64,000 bases of DNA from Ignavibacteriales bacterium (GCA_020061355.1 JAGUYK010000025.1:47815-111814); one strand, 5' to 3'; numbered from the stretch's first letter, positions 1,774-34,590 are shown. Notes: a model not told the origin generated them from the sequence alone. Program-made: numbers and translations.

Positions 1774-3039
1774 ATGAATATTGATACAATTAATTCAACA
1801 AGTGTATTGAGAAGATGTCTGCGCTTCATAGTATTGATGTTGGTAGTTATTTTGATGTTGTCTTCCGTCGCGTATTCTCAACCATATACTAACCCTACAA
1901 CGGTTGACTTAAAAACTGCTGCCAATTTTAGAATTCTGGCTGGAAGCGCGGTTACAATTAACGCCGGCTGTACAGTTACCGGGGATGTTGGGGTGAGCCC
2001 GGGTACTGGGATGACCGTAGCCGGAATAGTGAATGGAAATATTCATACAACGGATGATGTCGCAAGTACAGCCCAAAGCGATTTAACTGCAGCTTATACC
2101 GACGCCGCTCAACGAACAGCTGATGCCACGTTGGACGTAGAACTTGGTGGAAAAACCTTAGGATGTGGAGTTTATAATTCTGGAACTTTTACGATAAACG
2201 GAGTGCTCACACTAAGTGGTACGGCTAGTGATATTTTCATCTTCCAGTCAGCTGCCACACTTATCACGGGAACGACATGCATTGTGACCCTACTTGGCGG
2301 TGCCGTGTGGTCCAACGTCTTTTGGCAAGTCGGCAGTTCAGCAACTATTGAAGGAGACTTCAAGGGAACTATCCTCGCTTTAACAGCTATTACGCAAAAT
2401 GCCGGTGCATCATCTGTTTTAACCGGTAGAGCATTGGCGCGGAATGGTGCTGTCACAGTAAGTGGCGCTGAGGTATTGCCGGTGGAACTGACCTCTTTTA
2501 CAGCAGAGTTAAAAAACAATTCGGTAGAATTATATTGGACCACAGCCACAGAAATAAACAACTATGGATTCAATGTAGAATTGAAAATTGAGAATGGAGA
2601 ATGGAACAAGATTGGATTTGTTCAAGGACATGGTAACAGCAATTCACCAAAAGAATATTCATTTACAGATTCACCTTTTGGTGGTACGAAATTCAAATAT
2701 CGTCTAAAACAAATAGATTTTGATGGAGCTTATGAGTATTCTGATGAAATTGAAGTCAACCTAAATCCGCCATCAAAACTTACTCTTGTTCAAAATTATC
2801 CAAATCCATTCAATCCAACAACAATCATTTCATTTGAAATTCCTGTGAAATCAAATGTTGTAATTAAAGTTTATAATGTGATTGGAAGCGAGATTGCAGA
2901 TTTACTGAACGAAGAAAAACTTCCGGGTAGACATCAAGTTGAATTTAATGCGTCGTATTTGCCATCGGGAATTTATTTCTACTCTATCAATGCGGGTGAA
3001 CTCAAACCAATTATGAAAAAGATGATTCTTTTGAAATAA
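1774..3039 (+). CDS. DUF3494 (ice-binding-like fold) secreted protein with T9SS C-terminal sorting domain
   Basis: Start moved to ATG 1774 (MNIDT..., signal peptide ending SSVAYSQ) because TTG 1705 lies inside the conserved element. DUF3494 hallmarks: LKTAANFRILAGSAVT, GDVGVSPGT, TAAYTDAA, DIFIFQ, NVFWQVGSSATI, TGRALARNGAVTV. C-terminal NYPNPFNPTT...GIYFY...KKMILLK is a type-A T9SS CTD. Confidence 0.85.
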   Translation: MNIDTINSTSVLRRCLRFIVLMLVVILMLSSVAYSQPYTNPTTVDLKTAANFRILAGSAVTINAGCTVTGDVGVSPGTGMTVAGIVNGNIHTTDDVASTAQSDLTAAYTDAAQRTADATLDVELGGKTLGCGVYNSGTFTINGVLTLSGTASDIFIFQSAATLITGTTCIVTLLGGAVWSNVFWQVGSSATIEGDFKGTILALTAITQNAGASSVLTGRALARNGAVTVSGAEVLPVELTSFTAELKNNSVELYWTTATEINNYGFNVELKIENGEWNKIGFVQGHGNSNSPKEYSFTDSPFGGTKFKYRLKQIDFDGAYEYSDEIEVNLNPPSKLTLVQNYPNPFNPTTIISFEIPVKSNVVIKVYNVIGSEIADLLNEEKLPGRHQVEFNASYLPSGIYFYSINAGELKPIMKKMILLK

Positions 3040-3181
3040 TATTAAATAAGCATAGTGCGTCTCTGTCATTATTTAGTTTTAACGAACTGTCAGCAAATAA
3101 TAAATCTAAATTAATGTAGTGTCTTATCATATAAAGCCTGGCACTGCGATTTTTACTTCCGAGAGATTAAATTATCACGCA

Positions 3182-33000: not shown

Positions 33001-34590
33001 GACCTGTCAGGTAATTCAATGATAAGTAATTATGTATGGAATTTTAAAACTATTGAACCATTTACAGTATCATTATCAAGTAATCCATTGGCAGGCGGAA
33101 CTACAAGTGGAGGCGGTACATTTAATTCATGTTCTTCAGTTACAGTAATCGCAACACCAAATCCGGGATATGCTTTTACTAATTGGACTGAGAATGGACT
33201 TGTAGTATCGACAAATGCAAATTATACATTTACACTAAATGGAAATAGGGCATTAGTAGCAAACTTTGAAATTATTGAGTATACAGTAACATTATCAAGT
33301 AATCCATTGTTAGGCGGAACTACAAATGGAGGCGGTACATTTAATTCAGGCGCTTCAGTAACAGTAACTGCATCACCGAACGTTGGTTATTCGTTTACTA
33401 ACTGGACAGAGAATGGAAACCCGGTATCTACAAACGCAAGTTATACGTTTACAATAAGTGGAAACCGAACATTAGTAGCAAACTTCGCGGTTATACCACA
33501 GTATAACGTTACGTTATCGGCAAATCCGCCGGCTGGAGGTAATACAAGCGGAGGCGGTACATTTAATTCAGGTGCTTCAGTTACTGTAACCGCAACAGCA
33601 AATATGGGATATATATTTAATAACTGGACAGAGAACGGAAATCCAGTCTCTACAAATGCAAGTTATACGTTTACAATAACTGGAAACCGAACATTAGTAG
33701 CAAACTTTGACGTTATTATTATAACACAGTATTCTGTAACGTTATCAGCAGATCCGCCGGCTGGAGGAACAACTAGCGGAGGTGGTAATTATAATTCTGG
33801 AAGTAATGTAACAGTAACTGCATCACCGAACGTTGGTTATGCGTTTATTAACTGGACAGAAGGCGGAAACCCGGTATCTACAAACGCAAGTTATACATTT
33901 GTAATAACTGGAAACCGAATATTGGTAGCAAACTTTGCTTTGACAGGGCCGGACGGCGTAAACCTTCGGTCTGCAGGTGACTTTGCTATTCTGGCAGGCT
34001 CTAAGGTGGACGGCACCGCCGGAGTTGCTATTACTCATATTTATGGAGATGTTGGGTCATTTCCTACCGCCACAATTGTTGGGCTTACTGCGGCAAATGT
34101 GACTGGAACGCTTTATACGGCAGCTGATCCAATAGTCGCTTTAGCAAAAGATCATTTGACCCAAGCTTATAATGACGCACAAAGTAGATCATTAGATGCC
34201 ATCTCATTACCGGGACAATTGGGCGGTTTGACTCTTGCCCCTGGTCTCTATGTTAATTCAACATCGAGCGGAATATCGGGAACGGGACCGCAAGGAATCT
34301 TAACACTTGACGCAGGAGGCAATCCGAATGCAGTCTGGATATTCAAAATGGGTTCCACACTCATCACGGATCCCGGTACCAGTGTTGTTCTGGCAGGTGG
34401 TGCAAAATGGGAAAACATTTATTGGTCGGTAGGTACTTCAGCAACACTTGGAACGACCTGTATCTTTTATGGAAATATTCTTGCGGATCAATCAATCACA
34501 CTAGAGACTGGTGCAACATTGAGGGGCAGAGCCTTAACACGTATTGCTGCGGTTACATTGGATTCTAATATTGTTGATAAGCGGCCATAA
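30067..34590 (+). CDS. giant surface lipoprotein: 9 Ig-like repeats + 4 InlB-B-like repeats + C-terminal DUF3494 domain
   Basis: Lipobox IMAGCE. Nine 107-aa repeats (PPTVISTDP.N.ATGVALN.K.AATFS..MDA.T....TF.L.QGTT.VSGFVSYSGTTAIFTPA.NLAPNTVYTATITTGAKDLAGNALANNY.WSFTTG) resemble SbsA/Big_5-type Ig domains. Four ~75-aa GGTTSGGGTFNSG.SVTVTA.PN.GY.F.NWTENGNPVSTNASYTF repeats are of the divergent InlB B-repeat type. C-terminus: LRSAGDFAILAGS...GDVGSFP...TQAYNDAQ...VWIFKMG...NIYWSVGTSATL...RGRALTRIAAVTL. No T9SS CTD. Confidence 0.9.
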   Translation: MNKMQNFFKMWLIPLFFIMIMAGCEDRVGVTSPSIITIPTVSSTNPANAATGVAFNQKIIATFSEAMNSTTITTATFTLMQGTSFVSGTVSYTGTTATFTPSSNLTPNTTYTATITTGAKDLEGSTLANNYVWSFTTGAAALVIPPTVISTNPVNAETGVALNQKIAATFSVAMDATTISASTFTLMQGTTSISGFVSYSGTTAIFAPSAILSPNTAYIATITTGAKDLAGNALANNYEWSFTTGIAVVVTPPIVSFTDPANSATGVALNQKLAATFSKVMDASTLTSATFILRQGTTPVSGFVSYSGTTAIFTPASNLAPNTIYTATITTGAKDLAGNALANNYVWSFTTGAAAVITPPTVISTDPINVATGVALNQKLAATFSKVMDASTLTSQTFILRQGTTPIPGFVSYSGTIAIFTPASNLAPNTVYTATITTGAKDLAGNALANNYIWSFTTGAAVVVTPPIVSSTDPASAAIGVALNQKVAATFSKTMDATTLTSATFTLKQGTTSVSGFVSYSGTTAIFSPAGNLAPNTVYTAMVTTGARDLAGNALANNYVWSFTTGAAVVVIPPTVISTDPVNLATGVALNKKIAATFSVTMDATTIQTSTFILRQGTTSVSGFVSYSGTTAIFTPASNLAPNTVYTATITTGAKDLAGNALANNYVWSFTTGAAVVVIPPTVILTDPLNLATGVLLNKQIAATFSVPMQASTFTSASFILMQGTTSVTGFVSYTGTTATFRPASNLLPNTVYTATITNDVTDLSGTAMANDYVWSFTTGAADVIILPTVTSTDPANAATGVVLNKKIAANFSKTMDATTITSSTFTLRQGTNSISGFVSYSGTNAIFAPAANLTPNTLYTATITTGAKDLTGNAIANNYVWNFTTGSAVVGIPPTIISTDPLPDAICVPLNKHVTATFSKRMDASTITTAIFTVMEVVGTTFISGTVSYSDSTATFIPLSNLKMNTTYTATITTGAKDLSGNSMISNYVWNFKTIEPFTVSLSSNPLAGGTTSGGGTFNSCSSVTVIATPNPGYAFTNWTENGLVVSTNANYTFTLNGNRALVANFEIIEYTVTLSSNPLLGGTTNGGGTFNSGASVTVTASPNVGYSFTNWTENGNPVSTNASYTFTISGNRTLVANFAVIPQYNVTLSANPPAGGNTSGGGTFNSGASVTVTATANMGYIFNNWTENGNPVSTNASYTFTITGNRTLVANFDVIIITQYSVTLSADPPAGGTTSGGGNYNSGSNVTVTASPNVGYAFINWTEGGNPVSTNASYTFVITGNRILVANFALTGPDGVNLRSAGDFAILAGSKVDGTAGVAITHIYGDVGSFPTATIVGLTAANVTGTLYTAADPIVALAKDHLTQAYNDAQSRSLDAISLPGQLGGLTLAPGLYVNSTSSGISGTGPQGILTLDAGGNPNAVWIFKMGSTLITDPGTSVVLAGGAKWENIYWSVGTSATLGTTCIFYGNILADQSITLETGATLRGRALTRIAAVTLDSNIVDKRP
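30178..33060 (+). repeat. tandem coding repeat, 9 x 321 bp
   Basis: Period confirmed at DNA level: GGGGCAAAGGATCT.GCAGG.AATGCTTT.GCAAATAATTAT at about 31380 recurs about 642 nt later near 32020. Internal units are nearly identical, the first and last two are more divergent. Confidence 0.9.
33061..33945 (+). repeat. tandem coding repeat, 4 x ~222-231 bp
   Basis: GTAACAGTAACTGCATCACCGAACGTTGGTTAT...AACTGGACAGA...GGAAACCCGGTATCTACAAACGCAAGTTATAC recurs near 33360 and 33810. All four units are alignable. Confidence 0.85.

Follow-up and report, generated by a model that had tools for sequence, protein, structure and literature searches.

The best explanation we find for this locus, at a probability of roughly two in three, is that three DUF3494 proteins, exported by two routes, belong to a regulator-driven stress island and bind an ordered surface. 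Their genes lie in the window, the 64,000-nt stretch of an Ignavibacteriales genome analysed here, and a whole-genome scan finds no other PF11999 gene in the 3.69-Mb genome. To our knowledge, almost nothing is known of how bacteria regulate DUF3494 "ice-binding" proteins; if freezing is the signal, this would count as one of the earliest regulatory circuits described for them. The locus also bears on what DUF3494 proteins do outside icy habitats, for example, why aquifer bacteria retain them, and it makes a clean system for tests, with three DUF3494 proteins that differ in predicted export, a defined promoter module before each, a candidate cognate response regulator and kinases, and conservation across several genera. 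The inducing signal or the ligand would tell a freeze-protection device from a general stress-induced surface binder.

Three DUF3494 proteins with two predicted export routes

The proteins of 421, 363 and 1507 residues (Table 1) are genuine DUF3494 (IBP-1 beta-solenoid) proteins. The sequence-only reading had assigned the domain to each and had named failure of an HMM search to find it as a refutation; PF11999 matches all three strongly (E 7.6e-40, 137.2 bits; E 3.6e-73, 246.1 bits; and E 4.7e-47, 160.8 bits over residues 1308-1503 of 1507; gathering cut-off 28.7). The discontinuous beta-solenoid with one long alpha-helix comes from an AF2 model for the 421-aa protein and from homology to solved structures for the other two. 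Against the NCBIfam equivalog IBP_CFB (NF045625), the three score 229.7, 85.7 and 100.2 bits, all below the cut-off of 400, and are thus related to the equivalog rather than members of it. All three architectures are already annotated in large "ice-binding family" groups, of which these proteins are ordinary members, and the trio recurs widely.

Table 1. Features of the DUF3494 locus (nucleotide positions counted from the first letter of the window)
Feature	Nucleotides	Residues	Strand	Basis or remark
Element copy 1, predicted upstream activator site	1667-1704 (core 1677-1697)		+	exact core match, inside conserved block
Predicted sigma-70-type promoter, copy 1	1705-1734 (-35 TTGAAT 1705-1710, 18-bp spacer, -10 TATCTT 1729-1734)		+	fixed register, 55 aligned copies
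421-aa T9SS cargo	1774-3039		+	Pfam/NCBIfam matches, AF2 model, Foldseek
Capless DUF3494 domain	1933-2475	54-234	+	PF11999
FnIII-like beta-sandwich		about 237-335	+	between DUF3494 domain and CTD
Type-A CTD	2797-3027	342-418	+	Por_Secre_tail/TIGR04183
REC-GerE (NarL/FixJ-type) response regulator, paralogue 1, candidate activator	8900-9577		+	ends about 44 bp before core of copy 3
Element copy 4, predicted upstream activator site	10820-10857 (core 10830-10850)		+	core match
Predicted promoter, copy 4	10858-10886 (-35 TTTACA 10858-10863, 17-bp spacer, -10 TACCTT 10881-10886)		+	alignment register
363-aa T9SS cargo	11001-12092		+	Pfam/NCBIfam matches, phmmer
Capped DUF3494 domain	11154-11771	52-257	+	PF11999
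Type-A CTD	11841-12080	281-360	+	TIGR04183/PF18962
REC-GerE response regulator, paralogue 2	23291-23983		+	ends about 29 bp before core of copy 7
Element copy 9, predicted upstream activator site	29953-29990 (core 29963-29983)		+	core match
Predicted promoter, copy 9	29991-30019 (-35 TTTACT 29991-29996, 17-bp spacer, -10 TACCTT 30014-30019)		+	alignment register
1507-aa lipoprotein, no CTD	30067-34590		+	Pfam/NCBIfam, TRF, orthologue comparison
Lipobox Cys	30136-30138	24	+	...FFIMIMAGC / IMAGC, by eye
9 Big_5 repeats	about 30178-33066		+	Pfam
4 Flg_new_2 repeats	about 33070-33945		+	Pfam
Capless DUF3494 domain, extreme C-terminus	33988-34575	1308-1503	+	PF11999
OMP beta-barrel + OmpA-domain protein	34743-35852		+	directly 3' of 1507-aa lipoprotein gene
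REC-GerE response regulator, paralogue 3	36781-37470		+	same strand, 3' of giant DUF3494 lipoprotein and OmpA genes

The two export fates read earlier from the sequence also stand: the type-A sorting domain TIGR04183/PF18962 exceeds its cut-off of 23 in the 421-aa (32.5 bits) and 363-aa (47.4 bits) proteins, and the 1507-aa protein has a lipobox and no Por_Secre_tail/TIGR04183 CTD in Pfam/NCBIfam. The host genome encodes a SprA homologue (SprA_N match in a 2340-aa frame) and about 87 frames with a type-A CTD, which represent T9SS cargo. From these sorting signals and the domain layout, the two smaller proteins would be secreted or surface-attached via the type IX secretion system, and the largest would be lipid-anchored, with 13 Ig-like modules forming a stalk, estimated at ~45-50 nm, that carries the DUF3494 domain at its tip. 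Two T9SS cargos and one stalked lipoprotein would thus hold the same binding fold at differing distances from the cell.

The closest relatives of the 421-aa protein in sequence and fold are the capless ice-binding proteins EfcIBP (6EIO), AnpIBP (7BWX/7BWY) and IBPv (5UYT). Foldseek aligns its AF2 model (pLDDT 86.7) with 6EIO, 7BWY and 4NU2 at TMt 0.82-0.88 (0.82 with 42% identity for EfcIBP, 0.88 for AnpIBP); unlike the capless proteins, the 421-aa protein continues into an FnIII-like sandwich and a T9SS CTD. The N-terminus is a candidate Sec signal peptide, a hydrophobic helix ending AYS/Q (by eye), with residues 8-33 helical in the model. The TTG that the ORF finder chose at 1705 falls on the -35 hexamer itself and was rejected as a start; the ATG at 1774 is the right one.

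The same three capless proteins also come out best against the C-terminal DUF3494 domain of the 1507-aa protein; this domain differs from them in sitting at the tip of a 1300-residue stalk. The repeats of this gene resolve into a 321-bp unit in 8.3 copies and a 222-bp unit in 3.8 copies (TRF). An orthologue in one relative (G031) retains the lipobox Cys and shares 76% identity across the Big_5 repeat region, which makes up the first ~780 residues; the pairing with the downstream OmpA gene is conserved there and in L091. The known protein most like it in layout is SfIBP_1 of Shewanella frigidimarina (6BG8), which has been proposed to be an 'ice adhesin' (Vance et al. 2018, as cited in PMC9957290). 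Both run from a lipid anchor through tandem Ig-like domains to a distal DUF3494 domain, as judged in the 1507-aa protein from domain order and a lipobox found by eye. The stalk modules of SfIBP_1 are reportedly Big_2-type beta-sandwiches, unlike the 9 Big_5 and 4 Flg_new_2 modules here; the sequence match to 6BG8 is distant (69 bits, from an alignment of no more than about 125 residues), and the host is a non-polar aquifer organism.

Ice or another ordered surface

For the DUF3494 domain of the 363-aa protein (P0002), homology suggests that the ligand in vitro is most likely ice. The protein belongs with the capped ice-binding proteins, which include those of Candidatus Cryosericum odellii SMC5 (9LHN/9LHR/9LHS; engineered 9LI0), FfIBP (4NU2/4NU3), TisAFP6-8 and LeIBP. 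It matches 9LHN at E 2e-83 (phmmer), and it aligns end to end with 9LHN, 4NU3 and TisAFP8, capping-head segment included, at about 66%, 58% and 50% identity (estimated by eye from printed alignments). Unlike these proteins, it carries a fused type-A T9SS sorting domain and, at its N-terminus, a hydrophobic helix ending AIS/Q (by eye), a candidate Sec signal peptide; it also scores below the IBP_CFB cut-off, and comes from a groundwater Ignavibacteria-group MAG, a non-icy habitat. No conserved sequence motif for the ice-binding site of DUF3494 proteins has been identified (PMC7966756). Tyrosine substitutions at the b-face positions T20 and A214 of TisAFP7 lower activity (PMC7966756), and P0002, the one protein compared at these sites, has Thr at both aligned positions, which is weak evidence.

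The sequence-only reading itself allowed that the DUF3494 domains may simply act as adhesin modules. On this view they would form a non-ice adhesin or coat, made under stress in an aquifer that never freezes, and their target would be mineral, polysaccharide or the envelope of the cell itself; any ice affinity would be an inherited side-property of the fold. Though not the reading we favor, this is a live and quite possible alternative: the aquifer habitat makes a non-ice ligand in vivo nearly as likely as ice. The cold or freezing trigger suggested by the sequence-only reading is not established: metagenomes of groundwater, hydrocarbon and sediment contain the species, and families of DUF3494 orthologues are widespread in MAGs with names suggesting aquifers, which we take to be the Rifle, Horonobe and Crystal Geyser series. 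In the class, PF11999 is present in 62 of 401 sampled genomes, and a stalked lipoprotein layout is typical of adhesins. DUF3494 proteins also occur in the tropics and hot springs (PMC7783341) and in subsurface metagenomes (PMC12337378), and varied substrates have been proposed for them (PMC7783341, PMC12337378). Against a non-ice role stand the kinship of P0002 to a crystallised Antarctic protein (that of Ca. Cryosericum odellii) and to a hyperactive fungal antifreeze protein, and the origin of many of the closest P0002 homologues outside Ignavibacteria in MAGs with names suggesting cold sites. We also know of no PF11999 protein for which a non-ice ligand has been shown.

A conserved element and promoter before each gene

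Each of the three genes is preceded by a copy of a conserved element, as had been claimed: copies 1, 4 and 9 lie 97, 171 and 104 bp 5' of the ATGs. The window contains 11 copies of the core GTAGTYCCTTTTTCATCCCTT, every one on the + strand, against 0 expected, within a conserved block (CcAAAaGATGTAGTyCCTTTTTCATCCcTTTGnCCGA). The whole is a ~38-bp upstream site with 11-bp-phased TCCCTTT repeats inside an imperfect dyad, placed directly at the -35 box (roughly -36 to -73) of a predicted sigma-70-type promoter (-35 TTGAAT/TTTACA, 17 bp, -10 TAnnnT). Across 55 aligned copies from four genomes, the -35 is T55/T45/G44 of 55, the -10 has A in 50 and T in all 55, and the spacer is 17 bp at a fixed register, with 18 bp fitting copy 1 better. 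The downstream segment said to be shared by copies 4 and 9 is indeed present (ATCTACTTACCTT / ATCTGCTTACCTT), and its motif ATCT.CTTACCTT covers the last part of the spacer together with the -10 hexamer TACCTT. The copy-4 arrangement also stands 5' of orthologues in two other MAGs (L001, L091). The only RNA evidence is a single metatranscriptome contig of 355 nt, which comes from a close relative and is silent on the transcription start and on induction. A generic sigma-70 and terminator scan returned 43 hits against 39 expected, no better than shuffles, and independently picked the promoters at copies 2 and 3. ECF, sigma-54 and Bacteroidetes-type (-33 TTTG / -7 TAnnTTTG) promoters were rejected: the conserved hexamers TTGAAT-17-TAnnnT match the sigma-70 pattern, and 28 nt separate the TTTG from the TA.

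An island with its own candidate regulators

The genome holds about 19 element copies, all co-oriented and confined to a single ~70-kb island (C9:19.8-90.1 kb). Among the island ORFs examined, most by Pfam and the rest by eye, there is no sigma factor or AraC-type regulator, and the only DNA-binding proteins found are the REC-GerE regulators. Paralogue 2 follows a CheB-CheR-PAS protein and a PAS histidine kinase in a same-strand run led by an element copy, which probably forms a single operon.

Among 41 relatives, PF11999 occurs only in the three genomes richest in element copies (G000, G010 and G031), inside element clusters and directly 3' of a copy. The element is present in 8 of 8 DUF3494-positive genomes and 1 of 29 DUF3494-negative ones (same-family sample), and response-regulator orthologues of at least 50% identity in 8 of 8 multi-copy-element genomes and 1 of 33 others, the regulator gene usually stopping about 30 bp short of an element copy. 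The link between element and DUF3494 is kept in other genera, and other MAGs repeat the neighbourhood and the promoter. Because element cluster, REC-GerE regulator and DUF3494 genes co-occur across relatives, co-regulation of the trio with the island genes is well supported by genome comparison, and the proposal that it extends to the YtxH, CsbD, KaiC and Mla genes holds. That the REC-GerE proteins act at the element is suggested by this co-occurrence and by their adjacency.

In the mechanism we propose, each DUF3494 gene would have its own sigma-70-type promoter, and the ~38-bp site would be bound by the island's REC-GerE (NarL/FixJ-type) response regulators, to which the PAS histidine kinases and the CheB-CheR-PAS protein may feed a signal. 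The trio would be activated along with envelope and general-stress genes (YtxH, DUF948, CsbD, several OmpA proteins, KaiC-MlaEFD, PAP2 and GT4/GH130); its DUF3494 domains would bind an ordered surface, and their role in vivo may be envelope protection, or attachment by the envelope, under freeze, desiccation or osmotic stress. More tentatively, the trio in Ignavibacteria could form a core set of effectors in a ~70-kb general-stress island that is self-contained and inherited patchily, with about 19 promoters driven by its own NarL-type regulators, and have a non-ice, stress-induced surface role, which we propose because the hosts include aquifer bacteria unlikely to freeze.

The arrangement resembles sigma-70 promoters activated by NarL/FixJ regulators (LuxR-type HTH) in that REC + GerE proteins are encoded beside their presumed targets, in same-strand runs led by element copies that would fit autoregulation, and in that the conserved site abuts the -35 at a fixed phase. 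It is unlike those systems in having about 19 co-oriented target promoters within one ~70-kb island, and the element, a putative binding site, is built of 11-bp-phased TCCCTTT repeats, unlike a described NarL or lux box.

It is improbable that the element is no response-regulator site and instead either belongs to the transcribed leader as an RNA element or is recognised by a regulator or alternative sigma factor whose gene lies elsewhere in the genome. The element does hold a hairpin-like, imperfect dyad (AAAGGATG...CATCCCTTT), and one genome (G033) has regulator orthologues without the element in a search to 2 mismatches. However, in the 55 aligned copies a sigma-70-type -35/-10 pair stands downstream of it in a fixed 17-bp register, which should place the element before the transcription start, and an Rfam scan of the window gave no family match, so it corresponds to no known RNA. 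All copies lie inside the island, where the REC-GerE proteins are the only DNA-binding proteins found among the ORFs examined, and are missing from genomes without it, which argues for an island-encoded factor.

Very unlikely is a shared element that merely hitch-hiked with a horizontally moved island of common descent, without functional co-regulation: the island is missing from all 8 other same-genus genomes while present in other genera and families, and its tetranucleotide composition falls in the upper 5% of genome chunks, but that deviation is only mild, mobile-element hallmarks are absent (no integrase or tRNA seen at the island boundary, no tRNA on contig C9, GC equal to the rest of the contig), every DUF3494 gene retains its own element-promoter unit despite gene order shuffled between genomes, and the core is nearly invariant between diverged flanks, which points to selection on the site.

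Domain composition and relatives of the three DUF3494 proteins

The sequence-only reading had assigned a DUF3494 domain to three open reading frames, and Pfam bears out all of them: PF11999 (DUF3494, also called Ice_binding, the IBP-1 fold) matches P0001 (421 aa) at E 7.6e-40, P0002 (363 aa) at 3.6e-73, and the 1507-aa lipoprotein at 4.7e-47, in the last at residues 1308-1503. When the complete 3.69-Mb assembly was searched in six frames, PF11999 turned up in these three genes alone. The distribution of C-terminal sorting domains (CTDs) was also read correctly, since among the three only P0001 and P0002 exceed the cut-off for a type IX secretion (T9SS) sorting domain (PF18962/TIGR04183). 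The 1507-aa protein has nine Big_5 and four Flg_new_2 stretches in Pfam, and Tandem Repeats Finder reports in its gene a 321-bp unit in 8.3 copies and a ~222-bp unit in 3.8 copies. A lipobox closes its N-terminal segment, MNKMQNFFKMWLIPLFFIMIMAGC, and the lipobox Cys is also present in the orthologue of comparison genome G031 (..IIMASC). Judged by sequence, the three proteins are members of known, already annotated families: each architecture is represented by a large family in MAGs of Ignavibacteria, Melioribacteraceae, and Bacteroidota, named by NCBI "ice-binding family protein" or "Ig-like domain-containing protein", and at least nine contigs, recognised by their shared lengths, appear to carry two of the three architecture types. 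The present analysis adds the promoter anatomy, the link to a candidate response regulator, and the conservation of the association across genera.

The P0002 domain has a capping head, and its top PDB match is 9LHN (E 2e-83, ~66% identity), which its PDB title describes as a Candidatus Cryosericum odellii SMC5 ice-binding protein; identity is ~58% to the FfIBP chimera 4NU3 and ~50% to fungal TisAFP8 (all identities read by eye from printed alignments). Tyr at T20 or A214 of TisAFP7 lowers activity (PMC7966756), and P0002 has Thr at both equivalent positions. The domains of P0001 and the 1507-aa protein fall in the capless group, with EfcIBP (6EIO) and IBPv (5UYT) as top matches. An AlphaFold2 model of P0001 (pLDDT 86.7) aligns with 6EIO at TMt 0.82 and 42% identity and with AnpIBP at TMt 0.88, and includes two beta-sandwiches on its C-terminal side, of which one is an FnIII-like module and the other is the CTD. 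Pairwise identity among the three domains is only 32-43%, so they are either old paralogues or separate acquisitions. A 450-aa orthologue of P0001 in G031 shares its architecture of ice-binding domain, FnIII-like module, and CTD yet carries, instead of the capless domain, a capped one 77% identical to that of P0002. Domain type and anchoring module have therefore been shuffled, probably because paralogues swapped domains or underwent gene conversion.

A conserved element joined to a predicted promoter

The core of the ~38-bp element that precedes all three genes, GTAGTYCCTTTTTCATCCCTT, has 11 occurrences in the window where 0 would be expected, and every one is on the + strand. Genome-wide there are ~19 true copies, all co-oriented and on a single contig, and these sit within an island of ~70 kb with ~19 element-promoter units, of which the window holds the right part. 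In an alignment of 55 copies from four genomes, the conserved block CcAAAaGATGTAGTyCCTTTTTCATCCcTTTGnCCGA is followed directly on its 3' side by a -35-like hexamer (TTGAAT, TTGTAT, or TTTACA; T in 55/55, T in 45/55, G in 44/55) and, with the spacer set at 17 bp as the alignment's fixed register, by a -10-like hexamer TAnnnT (T in 41, A in 50, final T in 55 of the 55). Because the predicted hexamers stand 3' of the block, we reject the element as a transcribed leader and place it upstream of the start, from about -36 to -73, joined to a predicted sigma-70-type promoter. Transcription would begin about 7 nt past the -10 boxes, whose last bases are 1734, 10886, and 30019. The promoter-like segment said to be shared by copies 4 and 9, ATCT.CTTACCTT, is indeed so, and corresponds to the spacer end and the -10 box. 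The ORF finder's start for P0001, TTG 1705, coincides with the -35 box and is rejected, which puts the start at ATG 1774. The predicted ~108-nt leader of the P0002 gene contains a 14-codon upstream ORF, MNKIARAIIRTENL and a stop.

Features of the DUF3494 genes and their island (window positions unless a contig is given; C9 is the contig numbering of the window's genome)
Feature	Position	Strand	Detail
P0001 gene	1774-3039		element copy 1
P0002 gene	11001-12092		element copy 4
1507-aa lipoprotein gene	30067-34590		element copy 9
Predicted P0001 promoter	1705-1734		TTGAAT-18-TATCTT
Predicted P0002 promoter	10858-10886		TTTACA-17-TACCTT
Predicted 1507-aa gene promoter	29991-30019		TTTACT-17-TACCTT
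Upstream ORF of P0002 gene	10927-10971	+	14 codons
REC-GerE response regulators	8900-9577; 23291-23983; 36781-37470
OMP beta-barrel + OmpA-domain gene	34743-35852; G031:C59 58599-59711; L091 9022-10140		3' of stalked lipoprotein gene
P0001 orthologue in G031	G031:C59 60759-62111		450 aa
Island	C9:19,829-90,112		right part is window 1-42,318
CsbD-like ORF	25494-25679	+	61 aa
MscS-family channel gene	41177-42085	-
Hemerythrin-like protein gene	C9:41246-41656		136 aa; left of window
Type IV pilin/minor-pilin-like genes	C9:20161-22334		three, by eye; left of window

Conservation of the element and its candidate regulator

Among 41 relatives, eight of them other genomes of the same genus, G010 (12 copies), G031 (19), and G032 (10) have the element in co-oriented clusters, while G011, G012, G023, and G026 have a few copies each. 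PF11999 occurs among these relatives only in G000, G010, and G031, within the element cluster and directly after a copy. The element, like the island, is missing from all eight same-genus genomes, yet the island occurs in further genera and families; its borders show neither a tRNA nor an integrase, and its GC content does not differ from that elsewhere on the contig. Of 401 genomes sampled evenly across the class, 62 (15%) have PF11999 and 43 have the element, with 0 matches to a reversed-pattern control in every genome. Within the window's own family, the element is present in 8/8 DUF3494-positive vs 1/29 DUF3494-negative genomes (hypergeometric ~2e-7), and an element-to-domain spacing of 260-340 bp is repeated in G357, G237, G156, and G215. 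Two independent MAG contigs have orthologue promoters TTTACT-17-TACCTT (L001) and TTACAA-17-TACCTT (L091), and contigs of this type repeat the neighbourhood of KaiC-MlaEFD, DUF3494-CTD, Flg_new_2+DUF3494, OmpA, response regulator, kinase, CsbD, DUF5670, DUF3943, PAP2, and CDP-OH transferase. These comparative data argue that the proposed co-regulation of the three genes through the element is real. Tandem arrays of 5-7 DUF3494 genes occur in other families of the class (G200:C2, G163:C2, G074:C56, G315:C3); G200, G163, and G074 have no copy of the element, and G315 has one distant copy. The DUF3494 genes of these families are presumably under another regulator.

The island encodes KaiC, a CheB-CheR-PAS fusion, and several PAS histidine kinases. 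Its DNA-binding proteins are limited to three REC-GerE (NarL/FixJ-type) response regulators, all in the window; the ORFs examined, most by Pfam and the rest by eye, included neither a sigma factor nor an AraC-type protein. Regulator orthologues (at least 50% identity) are present in 8/8 genomes with multiple element copies vs 1/33 others (G033 only; ~1e-7), and the regulator gene ends ~30 bp before an element copy in G010, G012, G023, G026, G031, and G032. We infer that REC-GerE regulators are candidates for binding the element.

Other island genes include a CsbD-like ORF shorter than usual length cut-offs, where a naive caller favours an overlapping 63-aa ORF on the opposite strand; a hemerythrin-like protein; type IV pilin/minor-pilin-like genes near the left edge; and an MscS-family mechanosensitive channel, among very few minus-strand genes in the island and likewise in G010.

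Export and anchoring

The host genome encodes a SprA homologue and ~87 CTD-bearing frames, and the putative signal peptides of P0001 and P0002 both end ..S|Q. Stalked forms across the family range from ~830 to 1700 residues, consistent with change in repeat number. The domain layout of the 1507-aa protein matches the "ice adhesin" arrangement proposed for SfIBP_1, in which Ig-like repeats connect the cell with its ice-binding domain (PMC9957290, citing Vance et al. 2018). The lipoprotein gene is followed by an OMP beta-barrel/OmpA gene in 3/3 genomes examined, a conserved pairing that may fix the stalk to both outer membrane and peptidoglycan.

Ice binding or another role

The observation of three DUF3494 genes behind one element is confirmed. 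Its interpretation is supported in part, for co-regulation and for the export routes; a cold trigger is unproven. P0002 would probably bind ice in vitro; for each of the capless domains of P0001 and the 1507-aa protein the predicted chance is somewhat short of even. The odds for roles in vivo are nearly balanced: a freeze-related role, to which we give a probability of roughly 0.45, is somewhat ahead of a role unrelated to ice, and the remainder is unassigned. Ice binding is favoured by the closeness of P0002 to crystallised ice-binding proteins, by the many MAGs with cold-sounding site names among its nearest homologues outside Ignavibacteria, and by companion genes (OmpA, YtxH, CsbD, Mla, MscS, glycosyltransferase) that would suit a response to freezing, desiccation, or osmotic stress. 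Against it stand the detection of the window's DNA in metagenomes from groundwater (10 runs), hydrocarbon, and sediment, and the names of orthologue-bearing MAGs, which we take to be the aquifer series from Rifle, Horonobe, and Crystal Geyser. The commonness of the domain in the class and the failure of all three proteins to reach the NCBIfam IBP_CFB equivalog cut-off also count against ice, as does the literature: no conserved ice-binding-site sequence motif has been identified in DUF3494 proteins (PMC7966756), which are also known from the tropics, hot springs, and the subsurface and whose substrates may be diverse (PMC7783341, PMC12337378). In a sediment metatranscriptome (X16), a 355-nt contig is 96% identical to positions 11258-11612, within the P0002 gene, which indicates that a close relative's gene is transcribed in situ.
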